The notes below the pieces were generated by a model that was not told the DNA's origin, did no database searches, and saw only the letters and a program-made list of their open reading frames with translations. Positions 3,518 to 14,541 of a stretch of DNA of 64,000 nucleotides are shown piece after piece. The stretch is from Dictyostelium discoideum (Eukaryota): assembly GCA_000004695.1 (NCBI GenBank), contig CM000150.2, positions 2,592,001 to 2,656,000 of the forward strand. Reading direction: 5' to 3'. The first letter of the stretch is position 1. Every line of letters starts with the position of its first letter. The translations under genes were made by a program, and so were the position numbers.

Positions 3518-6500
3518 ATGATATTGTTTTCATCATCATCATCATCAATATTTTATAAAATTAGAAATAACTTGCTTTATTTATTTAGTATTTTATATAT
3601 AGTAGTAATATGTTTATGGGGTGTTAGTAATGTTGCAGTTGTAGAATCAGCTGCAATTAATACGAATGGAGGTAGTACAAGTGATACTTACTGTCCATAT
3701 CAAGCACTTCCAGACACATTAAATGATTTAAATTTTTTAGGTTTCGATGGTGAATTCCACATACACGAAACTTTTTATTATAATTTCAAAAACTTTCAAA
3801 AATCAATATCTTTTACACTTTTACAAAAAAGTGCTTTCCGTATTTATACTGCACCACATGTTGTAGATATTGATCTTTGGTTATATAATAAATCTGATTC
3901 TTCAAAAGCTGTTGCTGTAAGTATACATTTAAAAAGAAATAAAATAAAATATAATAAAATAAATTTTATTACTAACTTTTTATTATTATTATTATTATTA
4001 TTATTTTTATTATTATTATTATTATTATTATTATTATTATTATTATTATTATTATTATTATTATTATTATTATTATTATTATTATTATTATTATTATTAT
4101 TATTATTTTATTTATAAAAAAAATAGCATACATCAGATATGGGTGGTGATGAAAATTTATATGCAGAATTAGAAGCTGGCGAATATTTTATTAAATTTTT
4201 ATTCTTTGGTCAAAATAAAGCAAGTCAATTAGATTGTACAACAATTACTTTAGAAATCGCCATTTCACCAACTGTAAATATTTACCTTTTTTTTTTTTTT
4301 TTTTTTTTTTTTTTTTTAAAAAAAAAAAAAAGAATATTGTATACAATATACTAATAAATTTATGTTTTTTTTTTTTTTTTTTTTTTTCATAATTTATTTA
4401 TTTTAGAGTTTGGTTCAATCTAGAATGCAAGATTTCGGTTGCCCAAGTAAACAAATTTTACCAACCATCAGTTGGACAACATTACAAAATACAGGTAAAT
4501 TAACCTATGATTCAGATGTTAATCAAGATGGTACAGTTTTAAATATTAATGATATTGGTTCAACTGATTTATATAAATTTGCTGCAAATATTCCATTCAC
4601 TTTACCACAATCAAATACAATTAATAAATATAGTGTTGATGTTTCAATGGGTTTTGATTTTTTAACTGGTGGTTCATTAAAGTAAGTTATAAATAAATTA
4701 ATAAATAAATAAATAAATAAAAATAAAATACTAAATATCAATTTATTTTTTTAAAATTTCAAGTGTTTTAATTCAAAGTGCAGATTTACCAGCACCAACA
4801 AATCTTTTATGTTTAAAAGATGGTAATTGTACAATTGGTGTACATTTAAGTAAGAGTCATTCAATTATAAAGACAGTATTATTACCAGGTGATTATATTA
4901 TTTGGATTTATGATCAAACTCAAGAGAAAGATATGGCAATTCAATTAAAATGTTTACCATTTTCAATGTTTATCGATATTCAACCAGCTCAACAAGTTGA
5001 GGACTTTTTAAATTGTCAATCCTATTTCTTACCAAGTTCATTCAATGAACCTGGCTTTTTAGATGATGGTGGTTTTATGTATTTCGATGAGGATGTTTAT
5101 TTAGATCTCTCTGTAAAGAGTGTAGCAATCACATTCAACCTCACACAACCAAGTTATTTCCGTACTTATATTCCAGATTTTCGTGTCGATATCGATATTT
5201 CATTGACAAAGATTGGCGTTGCACAACCAATTGCACGTTCATACAAATTTGGAGGTGAGGAGGAGATTAACGCTCAATTGAATCAAGGTAGTTACATTTT
5301 AACTTTATTCTACTTTGGTAAGAATGCAGATGTATTTTGTGACGAATATGCATTGGAAGTTGCAATCGTACCTCAAACCGATTATATTGGTAGCACTTGT
5401 ACAACCTCATCTGCACCAGATTTCTCAAGCATTAATCAAACACTTTTCAATAGTGCCTCAAAATCCTATAGTTTGAATGCAGTTGCTGGTCAAACAATTC
5501 CAAGATATCAATATGTTTTCGATAAAACCGATCTTAATCCACAAACTTTAGCCTCTGTAAATTTCACAATTCCAGACGATGGTGATGAAGATGGTATCTA
5601 TTTCTTTGAATCAATCATAGAGAGTAGTTTTGTATTGGGTGACGTTCGTTTAGTACTCACCGATTTAGCAATGACTCAAGATCAATCAAATATCGTTTAC
5701 GTTGGATCACATGATCGTAATCGTCATATCATTTCATTACGTATTTATCCAGGTGATTATCAAATTCAAATTCAAACTCCAAGAATCTCTCAAAATCAAC
5801 TCGATTATCTTCCATCCTGTTTAACCTATTCACTTAGTATGATCATTAAACCATCGAATGGTGATGAATTCGATCCATCATGTTTTGGTTTAGTTAGTAT
5901 TTTACCAGGTGATTTAAATACTCCAGCTTATTTAGGTACTTCAAATCGTTTACATGTCTCTGGTGAATATTTAATTCCAACTTTACCAATTTTCACTTCA
6001 ACTAGTACCTATCACAATTTCACCGTAGCATTGGATTCCATTCTTAGAGTTTACACTCAATACAATAAAGTCGATATTGATTTAAATCTTTATGAAAATG
6101 GTAAATTAGTTTCATGGAATACTCGTTTCTACACTGAAGAGGCTATGGTTTATCAATTAAAGAAAAATACACCATATCAATTACGTATTAAATATTTCCG
6201 TCTTAGTATTTCATCAATTCCAGCTTGTTCAACCTTTAATTTAGAAATGGTTATTTCACCACTTCAAGAGAATCCAAAGGATTCTTGTAAACAATTGAAT
6301 CAAGTACCATCCAATCTCATTCCAACACCAACTTTAACTCCATTCTTTTCAAGTGAATCCTATAATTTCAATCAAAATTCATCTGCAATGACATTTAAAT
6401 TACCATTTGTCGTTCCAGTGAAATCAGGTTCCGCTATCTTCCGTGCTGTCTTATCCTATGATTTCATTTGGAATAATTTAGCAATCGTTTTGAAATCTTC

Positions 6501-12500: not shown

Positions 12501-14541
12501 TAATTTACGTCTCTACAGTGATGATTTCATGGCTCCATCAACAGCCTCCACTCAAAATATCTCCTTTACAATCGGTCAACCAACATTTGTAAACATTTTC
12601 ACTATCGATGATCTCACTGCCTCAATCGATGCCGATATCTTTGTCAAGAATACCGCCAATGATCAAGATCTTCTCTATGATGTTACACTTCATAATACCG
12701 CTCAACATTCAATGTTATTCGTTGCCAATCCACCAAAATCTGGTCTCCAAAGTGATTTCTCAATTAGTTTAACATTCAAAGGTGTATCTAAAGATGCTTG
12801 TCCAGCTTTTGGTTTACAAGTGGTAATGAAACCTGTCTCTTATTTAACCAATCAACTCTATTGTACAAAGAATTTCCATCCAAAACTTCCAAATACAAAT
12901 CCAAAACCAAATCAATATGGTGCAGTCAATGAATATATCTCCTCAAGTATGCCAGGTGATTACATCAATAGTATGGCCACTGCTAACAATCAATTCGAAT
13001 ACAATATCGATTTCTCTTTGGATCGTATCTCTCGTATTGAAGCTTCCATTAGTTTCGATTCAATTGCCACCAACTTTTATTTGAAACTTTCAACTAGAAC
13101 CACCGATAAGAGTGGTAAAGTTGTTCGTAATTCAATTAGCACCGGTGATTGGAATGCTGAAAATTCATTTGGTGAAACCACAATGACCTCTTCCATCTCA
13201 AGCTCACGTTTAGCCATTGGTAACTATTCAATCACAATCGTTCAACCAAAATATCAACCAAACTCTTGGATTACCTCAAGTATCTATGGTGAATTATGTT
13301 TCCCATTCACTTATTCCCTCACAATTATGGATAGAAATCAAGTTTATGCTGGTTCAGTCACTCCTAGCAATGGTTTCAATCTTTTACCAAATCATGATCT
13401 CAATTTAGTCTTCCAAACTCATTCAACACTCTATAGTGACGCTCAAGCTACCATCTTTTGTAATTCTTCTCAATATATTAAAGATACCTTTTATTTGGCA
13501 AGTCAATCCTCTAGTGATACCATCGCACCATCCAATGTTATTTGTGGTGCTGATGATGGAACTAAATGGATTTTTGTATTCTCAAATGATTCACTCGTTG
13601 CCGACTCTTCCTATATCCTCAGTATTCGTGATGGAAAACTCTTTGATTCTACTGCTGTACCAGCAATACTTCCACCACAACATATCTACACCATGTTGGA
13701 CACCTCTTGTTCAAACAATGGTTATTTCAAAGATTCAGGTTGTATATGTGCTAAAGGTTACACTGGTGTAGATTGTAACAATTGTGCACTAGATTATCAT
13801 AATATTGACACTCAAGGCTCCCCAATTTGTGTTAAATCCGAATGTGAACCATACTATTGTGGTTGTGATCCAAATAATAACTCCACTTGTACTCAATTGG
13901 GTAAATGTGTAACTAACACAGATGGCAATGCAGTTTGTATTTGTTCTGGACCATACAGTGGTACAACTTGTAATAAGTGTGCTTTGGGCTATCATAACTA
14001 TCCATATTGCACAGTGTGGAAGGATTGTGGTGATTGTGGTAAAGGTAGTTGTGATCATGAAAATGGTCAATGTACTTGTCCAGATAACTATCAAGGTCCA
14101 TCATGTTCTCAATGCGCCGATGGCTACAGTGGTAGTGATTGTAAAAAGAATGGTTCCGGTGCTATCGTTGCCTTGGAAGTTATTGGTGCCTTAGTAGTTG
14201 CCTCCATTTTAATTGGTGCTGCCATTTGGTATATCAGAAATCGTTATAGATCAGGTGTCACTCGTTATAAGATGTTACCAAAATTCGATTTCGATAATGA
14301 TGGTGAACATACAACTCAATTCCCTGGTCTTTATGATGACGATGATGATGCTTTTGGTGGTGGTGATAATTCCGCAAATAAAAACGATAAATCCATCAAT
14401 AGATCTGGTGGTAAAACTCACGTATTCAGTTTCAGTGGTATGCCTTCATCTGCCATCGACTCTGATGATGATGATGACTATGAACAACAACAAAAAGTAA
14501 AAGCTGAAAATCATAAAACCAATCATTTATTCGATATGTAA
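3518..14541 (+). CDS. Giant type-I membrane protein of about 3530 aa. Signal peptide, about 20 tandem PPC-like (pre-peptidase C-terminal-like) beta-repeat modules in two blocks, each block followed by a laminin-type EGF cluster, then one transmembrane helix and an acidic cytoplasmic tail.
   Basis: Four exons joined by GT..AG introns, all phase-consistent: 3518..3916, 4127..4273, 4407..4681 and 4764..14541. Introns 1-3 are AT-rich; intron 1 is almost pure (ATT)n. N-terminal signal peptide (MILFSSSSSSIFYKIRNNLLYLFSILYIVVICLWGVSNVAVV). Repeated motifs: YLGF..H....Y, S.LRVYT.PH..DVDLWLY and G.Y.L.L.Y...C..F.LE.AI.P. Cys-rich C.C.GHG.C...C.C..GY.G..C..C repeats (CNCNGHGTCGDDGVTCVCKDPWAGIDCSKCKAGYHG). 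TM helix AIVALEVIGALVVASILIGAAIWYI followed by a D/E-rich tail. Confidence 0.85.
3981..4108. repeat. Perfect (ATT)n microsatellite of about 42 units that makes up intron 1 of the giant gene.
   Basis: Direct reading of the sequence. It is flanked by the GTAAGT donor at 3917 and the ..aaaatag acceptor at 4126. Confidence 0.9.

Follow-up and report, generated by a model that had tools for sequence, protein, structure and literature searches.

How did the protein encoded near the start of this locus come by 20 similar extracellular modules arranged in two matching halves? The window analyzed here is a 64,000-nucleotide (nt) stretch of Dictyostelium discoideum DNA (GenBank assembly GCA_000004695.1, contig CM000150.2, positions 2,592,001–2,656,000, forward strand). 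When four exons on its plus strand (3518–3916, 4127–4273, 4407–4681, and 4764–14541) were joined, they gave an uninterrupted coding sequence of 10,599 nt encoding a giant protein of 3,532 amino acids (aa). A sequence-only reading of the window had proposed that two PPC-like subtypes, A and B, alternate in five A-B pairs followed by a spacer and a cluster of laminin-type EGF repeats, and that this whole arrangement was duplicated in ancient times. The ectodomain contains two tandem copies of a ~1,660-aa block, each with five A-B units, an Ig-like domain, and a few laminin-type EGF repeats; a single transmembrane helix and a short, acidic cytoplasmic tail complete the protein. We propose that the whole block was duplicated in tandem once, either inside one gene or as a single-block gene whose two copies later fused. 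This event preceded the divergence of Amoebozoa, the malawimonad Gefionella, and Rhodelphis, and the 20 modules have since remained essentially frozen in number, order, and individual peculiarities. We regard this account of the structure and evolution of the protein (its architecture and fold, the doubling of the block, the timing of that event relative to the sampled lineages, and the conservation of the result) as highly probable.

Hidden Markov models (HMMs) of the A and B subtypes, built from the protein itself, detected 20 modules in all, with A and B strictly alternating, as 10 modules, a 231-aa gap, and 10 further modules; this tiling agrees with the proposed alternation of five A-B pairs, twice. 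Cysteines bracket modules of about 130–160 aa along the cysteine map of the protein. The motifs D.DLWLY (A) and GYDFL.GDL..KLI (B), by which the subtypes had originally been told apart, were seen in the alignments of the ten A and the ten B modules. When all modules were compared with one another by Smith-Waterman alignment, the A-A scores were 30–207 and the B-B scores 34–117, while the A-B scores lay mostly at the shuffled null level of 30 ± 6. Nevertheless, hhalign aligned A with B with a probability of 96% (E = 6e-9), placing D.DLWLY of A against GDL..KLI of B. Judged by these alignments, A and B are distinct yet distantly homologous subtypes.

Whole-protein self-BLAST returned only the trivial self-match. 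When ungapped 40-aa windows were scored in a self-dot-plot, the protein gave 469 high-scoring windows and a shuffled copy gave 0. The largest diagonal peak lay at offsets of 1620–1690 aa, the block period, with smaller peaks at the pair period of about 270 aa and at multiples of it. The self-dot-plot that had been suggested as a check is therefore structured and non-random, with its strongest diagonal at about 1,660 aa. Among the 120 possible ways of pairing the modules of the two blocks within the protein, the identity permutation (Ai with Ai+5) gave the best score sum for A (555; mean, 399) and, independently, for B (475; mean, 329), and cyclic shifts of the pairing scored far lower. The identity permutation again came first for both subtypes when position-specific profiles of 13 full-length homologues were used. 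At the profile level, A1/A6, A5/A10, and B5/B10 were reciprocal best pairs, and A3/A8, A2/A7, B1/B6, B2/B7, and B3/B8 were best or near-best pairs. Individual characters followed the same positions: the motif GGS..(F/Y)GGP was found only in A5 (11 of the 13 homologues) and A10 (all 13), and four cysteines were typical only of B1 (11 of 13) and B6 (7 of 13). Both bracketing cysteines have been lost from A9 in all 13 homologues, and the remaining A and B positions generally retain them. Since they are absent from A9 throughout while its paralogue A4 retains them, the loss, as read from the alignment, is a post-duplication change that was fixed before the sampled lineages split. The fact that both were lost together suggests that the bracketing pair forms an intramodule disulfide.

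The same pattern was recovered across species. When block 1 of one species was compared with block 2 of another, the identity permutation ranked 1–10 of 120, and orthologous block comparisons across species ranked first, with higher scores than block 1 against block 2. An unrooted neighbor-joining tree was constructed from a whole-block alignment of 1,575 columns, containing 17 two-block and 8 single-block proteins. The split between block 1 and block 2 received 100% bootstrap support, and the block-1 and block-2 clades each contained all 17 species. Species groupings were mirrored in the two halves of the tree, namely the dictyostelids; Cavostelium with P0009; P0014 with P0019 and P0021; P0020 with P0024; and Luapelamoeba, Endostelium, and Balamuthia. 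Within the D. discoideum protein, block 1 and block 2 share 24% identity, compared with 26% and 28% to the matching blocks of Gefionella and 22–23% to the non-matching ones. These results support the proposed duplication of the whole ectodomain block, through the permutations, the fully supported block split, the characters common to A5/A10 and B1/B6, and the homology of the spacers described below. The word “ancient” in the sequence-only reading was an understatement, in that the Gefionella and Rhodelphis blocks are closer to their matching blocks than block 1 is to block 2.

Homologues were collected by an exhaustive profile search with the A-B profile and re-annotated with the A, B, and spacer (S) HMMs, cysteine clusters, and hydropathy. 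At E ≤ 1e-3 the search yielded 1,529 cluster representatives, of which 233 passed E ≤ 1e-30; about 25 representatives, of 3,000–3,760 aa, had exactly ten A-B stretches. The recurring architecture was (AB)x5 - S - EGF (~17 Cys) - (AB)x5 - S - EGF (19–26 Cys) - transmembrane helix. Word-indexed searches under-reported the family, with three proteins found for a 1,724-aa query and none for an alignment query, and they missed the orthologues of D. purpureum and T. lacteum. Because orthologues of ~3,500 aa with 45–49% identity were missed in this way, the small number of such matches does not indicate rarity. The D. purpureum protein DICPUDRAFT_54646 (XP_003287048) is 49% identical (residues 14–3532 against 9–3497) and the T. 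lacteum protein DLAC_05961 (KYQ93296) is 45% identical from end to end; their collinear alignments and identical architecture strings place both in the same orthogroup. The protein of Balamuthia (KAL6071619) aligned end to end at 26% identity, and that of Gefionella okellyi (EP00698_P002656), complete at 3,479 aa, at 27%. The members include the dictyostelids D. purpureum, T. lacteum, and Acytostelium and, among other Amoebozoa, Cavostelium, Luapelamoeba, Endostelium, Clastostelium, and Balamuthia. In Rhodelphis marinus, block 2 was complete with ten modules, and 8 of the 10 modules of block 1 were detected. Because the 10 + 10 architecture recurs in Amoebozoa, Gefionella, and Rhodelphis (there with 8 of 10 modules in block 1), the duplication predates the splits between them. 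Single-block proteins of the form (AB)x5 - S - EGF, some with a transmembrane helix, were also found: the ciliate Blepharisma stoltei has two, and several further examples were detected. Four larger variants (P0040, P0055, P0059, and P0081) have 4,600–5,200 aa and 12–15 A-B stretches, and in the last three the first block is followed by an additional AB - S - EGF (12 Cys) unit; therefore, the architecture has not been frozen in every lineage.

The modules had been called PPC-like from their appearance. In a Pfam scan of the whole protein, the EGF repeats alone were recognized, with no match to PPC (PF04151), and A1, B6, and B8 searched singly gave no match to that family. An AlphaFold2 model of A6-B6, predicted from an alignment of 28 A-B pairs, had a predicted local distance difference test (pLDDT) score of 89.2 and a predicted template modeling (pTM) score of 0.87, and consisted of two beta-sandwiches linked by a short helix. 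The high pTM of this two-domain model suggests that the A-B unit may pack in a fixed arrangement. The top Foldseek match to the module model was 5iku, and the beta-sandwich was superimposable on solved domains of the PPC and collagen-binding domain (CBD) type. In a sequence-profile search of the PDB, the top five matches were all CBDs of ColG, at a non-significant E of about 0.2. The A-B pair profile matched P0087 and P0104 over the A core at 2.8e-86 and 8.6e-72, and Pfam finds 24 and 22 PPC domains in these two proteins (3e-198 and 2e-165). The modules are thus linked at the profile level to genuine PPC members, with B tied in through A by the hhalign match. Because the structures match and the profiles match proteins that Pfam scores as PPC, the A and B modules are of the PPC/collagenase CBD fold at the superfamily level, and the earlier label holds at that level but not as membership of the Pfam PPC family.

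Several results weigh against parts of the account given above. Position 4/9 was weakly matched and had no best match at the profile level, and in the Gefionella protein alone the identity permutation of the A modules ranked 55 of 120, no better than chance. Single-module neighbor-joining trees (34 A and 32 B modules) were uninformative, with most bootstrap values below 50%, so that the module-by-module pairing originally predicted (A1 with A6, A2 with A7, and so on) was borne out by the permutation and profile tests but not by the noisy single-module phylogeny. All trees were computed by neighbor joining on corrected p-distances and not by model-based maximum likelihood. The only module to approach the Pfam PPC profile was A6, whose match (17.1 bits, E = 0.01, profile positions 6–67 of 70) lay below the gathering cut-off of 25.9. 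The Gefionella and Rhodelphis sequences are derived from transcriptomes, in which contamination by an unsampled amoeba is possible. Finally, the cytoplasmic tail matched no Pfam family and contained no recognizable signaling domain. Some of these points would be expected if there had been no block duplication, and the ten A-B pairs had arisen by stepwise amplification of single pairs, with the spacer-EGF segments inserted separately. All A modules are alike and all B modules are alike, pair 4/9 is weak, and the single-module trees lack clades of modules i and i+5 except A5+A10 and B5+B10 at low support. However, stepwise amplification is at odds with the identity permutation outscoring the other 119 pairings in each subtype taken separately; with a strongest diagonal at the block period rather than the pair period; with homologous spacers and derived characters common to A5/A10 and B1/B6; and with the 100% split between the blocks. 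We therefore consider it extremely improbable.

The route of the duplication is a separate matter. A single-block gene, (A-B)x5 - Ig - EGF - transmembrane helix, might have been duplicated in tandem and the two genes fused with loss of the first helix and tail, instead of the block being duplicated inside one gene. Single-block proteins of equal layout do exist, such as the two in Blepharisma stoltei, and the ciliate-type single-block group forms a clade with 100% support that joins the block-1 side of the tree. Nevertheless, two adjacent single-block genes were seen in no sampled genome; some single-block entries, such as Clastostelium P0047, nest within the block-2 clade and are probably fragments; and an unrooted tree cannot distinguish ancestral from derived single-block forms. 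Fusion is thus the unlikelier route, with a real but minor probability; in any case, both routes end in a whole-block duplication that happened once, long ago. The low identity of the blocks (24%), together with the fact that orthologues resemble each other more than paralogues do, led us to reject a recent or concerted duplication. On a similar line, the resemblance of the blocks might be recent or maintained by gene conversion within dictyostelids, with the non-amoebozoan homologues being contaminants or horizontal transfers. This would fit the fact that Gefionella and Rhodelphis are known only from transcriptome assemblies, as well as the placement of Gefionella block 1 among sequences lacking taxon labels. 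However, identity between the blocks is below that to the orthologous Gefionella blocks, and there is therefore no sign of homogenization; the two block clades hold the same 17 species; Rhodelphis and Gefionella lie at the base of the block-2 subtree, not within the dictyostelids; and the amino-acid composition of the Gefionella protein is markedly unlike that of AT-rich dictyostelid proteins. Recency, conversion, or contamination is accordingly very unlikely to explain the data, and a single ancient duplication of the whole block remains our preferred explanation.

How ancient the duplication is can be stated only with more reserve. We tentatively suggest, at somewhat less than even confidence, that a 20-domain, two-block receptor already existed in a very early eukaryote, one that predated the separation of Amoebozoa, malawimonads, and the lineage of Rhodelphis and Archaeplastida and may have lived close to the last eukaryotic common ancestor, and that its domain count, domain order, and per-position quirks have been fixed for more than 1 billion years in phagotrophic protists. 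If this is true, a conserved ligand or assembly would be implied, with a separate role for each of the 20 positions, and the single-block relatives in ciliates would represent the pre-duplication state.

The gene lies in very AT-rich DNA (GC of 13–37% across the window). Exon 1 (3518–3916) contains the ATG, an N-terminal hydrophobic signal or anchor (aa 1–44), and the start of module A1, and ends at a GTAAGT donor. Exon 2 (4127–4273), with an AG acceptor, a GTAAAT donor, and phase 0, encodes the remainder of A1, as aligned with the orthologues. Exon 3 (4407–4681), with an AG acceptor, a GTAAGT donor, and phase 2, encodes the end of the A1 linker and the first half of B1; and exon 4 (4764–14541; 9,778 nt), contained in the open frame 4735–14541, runs from the remainder of B1 to the stop codon. 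The three introns are short and AT-rich, with GTAAGT or GTAAAT donors and AG acceptors. Intron 1 is mainly a long (ATT)n microsatellite (~3985–4112), and intron 2 contains long poly-T and poly-A runs (~4285–4390). The N-terminal 400 aa aligned without gaps at all three exon junctions, that of exon 1 included, with the orthologues of three dictyostelids (D. purpureum, T. lacteum, and Acytostelium), and GGSLNVLIQS at the exon 3/4 splice corresponds to GGSINVLLQE in D. purpureum. The array had been taken to start at 4407 and to lie within one giant exon. Exon 3 in fact begins at 4407, 33 nt 5' of the start of B1, and A1 lies upstream in exons 1 and 2 (3692–4273); the splice sites and orthologue alignment give four exons. 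Long exons are normal in Dictyostelium. The predicted product is a single-pass, type-I surface glycoprotein.

All modules are encoded on the plus strand. In block 1, A1 (aa 59–193; 3692–4439) spans introns 1 and 2, was detected by the A-HMM at E = 2.6e-48, and has A6 as its reciprocal best partner; B1 (aa 194–357; 4440–5013; B-HMM E = 7.5e-45) spans intron 3, carries an extra cysteine pair, and pairs best with B6. They are followed by A2 (aa 358–485; 5014–5397; E = 4.7e-43), which is the best profile partner of A7; B2 (aa 486–646; 5398–5880; E = 3.4e-44), best partner B7; A3 (aa 647–781; 5881–6285; E = 7.4e-43), best partner A8; and B3 (aa 782–924; 6286–6714; E = 3.1e-35), best partner B8. The match of A4 (aa 925–1066; 6715–7140; E = 7e-38) to A9 is weak, and B4 (aa 1067–1199; 7141–7539; E = 5.3e-38) has B9 as its best partner inside the protein, but the match is weak at the profile level. 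A5 (aa 1200–1339; 7540–7959; E = 1.6e-36) carries a GG..GGPQ insertion and is, with A10, a reciprocal best profile pair, as is B5 (aa 1340–1495; 7960–8427; E = 6e-42) with B10. Block 2 opens with the two modules that were modeled with AlphaFold2, A6 (aa 1725–1862; 9115–9528; E = 2.3e-49), which gave the sub-threshold PPC match, and B6 (aa 1863–2020; 9529–10002; E = 4.3e-41), whose extra cysteine pair makes four cysteines as in B1. The D.D motif is degenerate in A7 (aa 2021–2143; 10003–10371; E = 4e-37), which is followed by B7 (aa 2144–2284; 10372–10794; E = 8.8e-43), A8 (aa 2285–2417; 10795–11193; E = 3.9e-46), and B8 (aa 2418–2557; 11194–11613; E = 3.7e-40). The cysteine-free A9 (aa 2558–2690; 11614–12012; E = 1.1e-28) precedes B9 (aa 2691–2824; 12013–12414; E = 8.6e-41), and the block's array ends with A10 (aa 2825–2973; 12415–12861; E = 8.5e-35), in which the insertion reads GGS..GGPI, and B10 (aa 2974–3135; 12862–13347; E = 1.3e-37).

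Each array is followed by a spacer, S1 (aa 1496–1619; 8428–8799, plus strand) and its paralogue S2 (aa 3136–3255; 13348–13707, plus strand), the latter being detected in homologues by the S-HMM. Compared with solved E-set domains, the spacer has an Ig-like (E-set) beta-sandwich fold of seven to eight strands. S1 and S2 aligned with a Smith-Waterman score of 56 (z = 5.6), and a multi-species spacer alignment backed their homology. The spacers are thus homologous as had been predicted, but at about 125 aa they are shorter than the ~200 aa assigned to them. The EGF clusters were likewise found where they had been placed, with two and three repeats by Pfam and the cysteine map instead of three and four. 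Cluster 1 (8800–9084, plus strand) contains two 8-Cys laminin-type EGF repeats (aa 1620–1660 and 1666–1714), matched in Pfam by PF24973 (34.2 bits, cut-off 27; two stretches) and PF00053 (24.2 bits, cut-off 21). Cluster 2 (13708–14142, plus strand) contains three laminin-type EGF-like repeats with 6, 10, and 8 cysteines (aa 3256–3296, 3301–3356, and 3362–3400), matched by PF00053 (44.2 bits, cut-off 21; three stretches). These scores place the repeats in the laminin-type EGF family, with the 8-Cys pattern CxC...CxC...CxxC...C in three repeats, and 6 and 10 cysteines in LE2a and LE2b, respectively. The transmembrane helix predicted after the second cluster was located at aa 3407–3430 (GAIVALEVIGALVVASILIGAAIW; 14161–14232, plus strand), a hydrophobic stretch that the hydropathy scan placed at the same position in the homologues. 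The remaining 102 aa and the stop codon (14233–14541, plus strand) form the cytoplasmic tail, which has acidic D-runs, ends in LFDM, and is conserved among dictyostelids only. The tails of the homologues share an acidic character but little sequence conservation; a hydrophobic-acidic tetrapeptide (LFDM, LFDL, FFDM, or LFNL) closes several of them, and those of Luapelamoeba, Endostelium, and P0018 have a D/E-(D/S)-FNPR motif in common. The C-terminal tetrapeptide and the FNPR-type motif may be sorting signals.

Other genes occur in the window. On the minus strand, positions 20482–29548 encode a Steely-type hybrid polyketide synthase, with type I ketosynthase, acyltransferase, dehydratase, methyltransferase, enoylreductase, ketoreductase, and acyl carrier protein domains and a C-terminal type III chalcone/stilbene synthase; such fusions of type I polyketide synthase with type III chalcone/stilbene synthase are characteristic of Dictyostelium. 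An open reading frame with GRAM and RabGAP-TBC domains (149–1999, plus strand) is 80% identical to its counterpart in D. firmibasis and 94% identical to a record labeled Dictyostelium discoideum, with scattered substitutions and differences in repeat length, which places the window within D. discoideum or among its nearest relatives. The domains of a P4-type phospholipid-translocating ATPase (flippase) are encoded by an open reading frame at 53714–56689 (minus strand), which is probably one exon of a larger gene.

As for function, the giant protein could serve as an extended, multivalent surface receptor for adhesion or ligand capture on phagotrophic cells, with the PPC-like domains acting as its binding modules, as in collagenases and Clostridium perfringens enterotoxin, where PPC domains bind. 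A role in contact with the substrate or prey would fit, because all the named hosts are phagotrophs. This role as an adhesion or ligand-binding receptor, proposed by analogy, is put forward as a tentative suggestion that we hold to be possible rather than probable. Tandem-repeat proteins usually gain, lose, and homogenize their repeats. The giant protein is a rare counter-example, built up hierarchically from domain to A-B pair, from pair to five-pair block, and from block to two blocks, with the top level duplicated once and then frozen by position, and it offers a clean natural setting in which to study the fixation of repeat identity. The analysis also defines a sizeable unnamed eukaryotic family, whose modules escape Pfam, and shows that a fold regarded as bacterial, the PPC/collagen-binding fold, is a major structural element of the cell surfaces of protists. 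Dictyostelium is genetically tractable, so that the function of this predicted conserved giant receptor could be addressed there.

A repeat-rich surface protein with an internal duplication is an already known kind of protein. The family itself, its alternating A-B PPC-like unit, and the frozen two-block architecture appear to be undescribed: literature searches found no paper on the orthologues or the family, and the bipartite architecture is annotated in none of the searched databases, in which the orthologues are labeled “hypothetical” or “EGF-like domain-containing.” The Balamuthia protein has been automatically named “Tenascin C.” Tenascins have an N-terminal assembly domain, EGF-like repeats, fibronectin type III repeats, and a C-terminal fibrinogen globe; because EGF repeats were the only tenascin feature found, and the protein is membrane-anchored with no fibronectin type III or fibrinogen domain in the Pfam scan, this name was rejected. 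Animal cubilin, CUB-EGF proteins, and neuropilin are also receptors that combine beta-sandwiches with EGF repeats, but their CUB domains are not PPC-like, and the likeness is one of layout, with no sequence relationship shown; we know of no A-B alternation or two-block duplication among them. Compared with the s3a-s3b CBDs of ColG and the PPC family (PF04151), the giant protein has 20 copies in two alternating subtypes within a eukaryotic membrane protein, and its modules are bracketed by cysteines, have N-terminal extensions, fall below the Pfam threshold, and have no protease domain attached. Bacterial PPC-repeat surface proteins, with 22–25 repeats and a Por secretion tail (e.g., NGZ28194 of Magnetococcales), resemble it in their long PPC-type arrays, and the A core of the profile matches such proteins at E = 1e-72 to 1e-86. 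However, the bacterial arrays are homogeneous and A-like only, without B modules, Ig-like domains, EGF repeats, a transmembrane helix, or higher-order blocks. The uncharacterized orthologues of D. purpureum, T. lacteum, Balamuthia, and Gefionella, in contrast, have the identical string, (AB)x5 - S - EGF - (AB)x5 - S - EGF - transmembrane helix.

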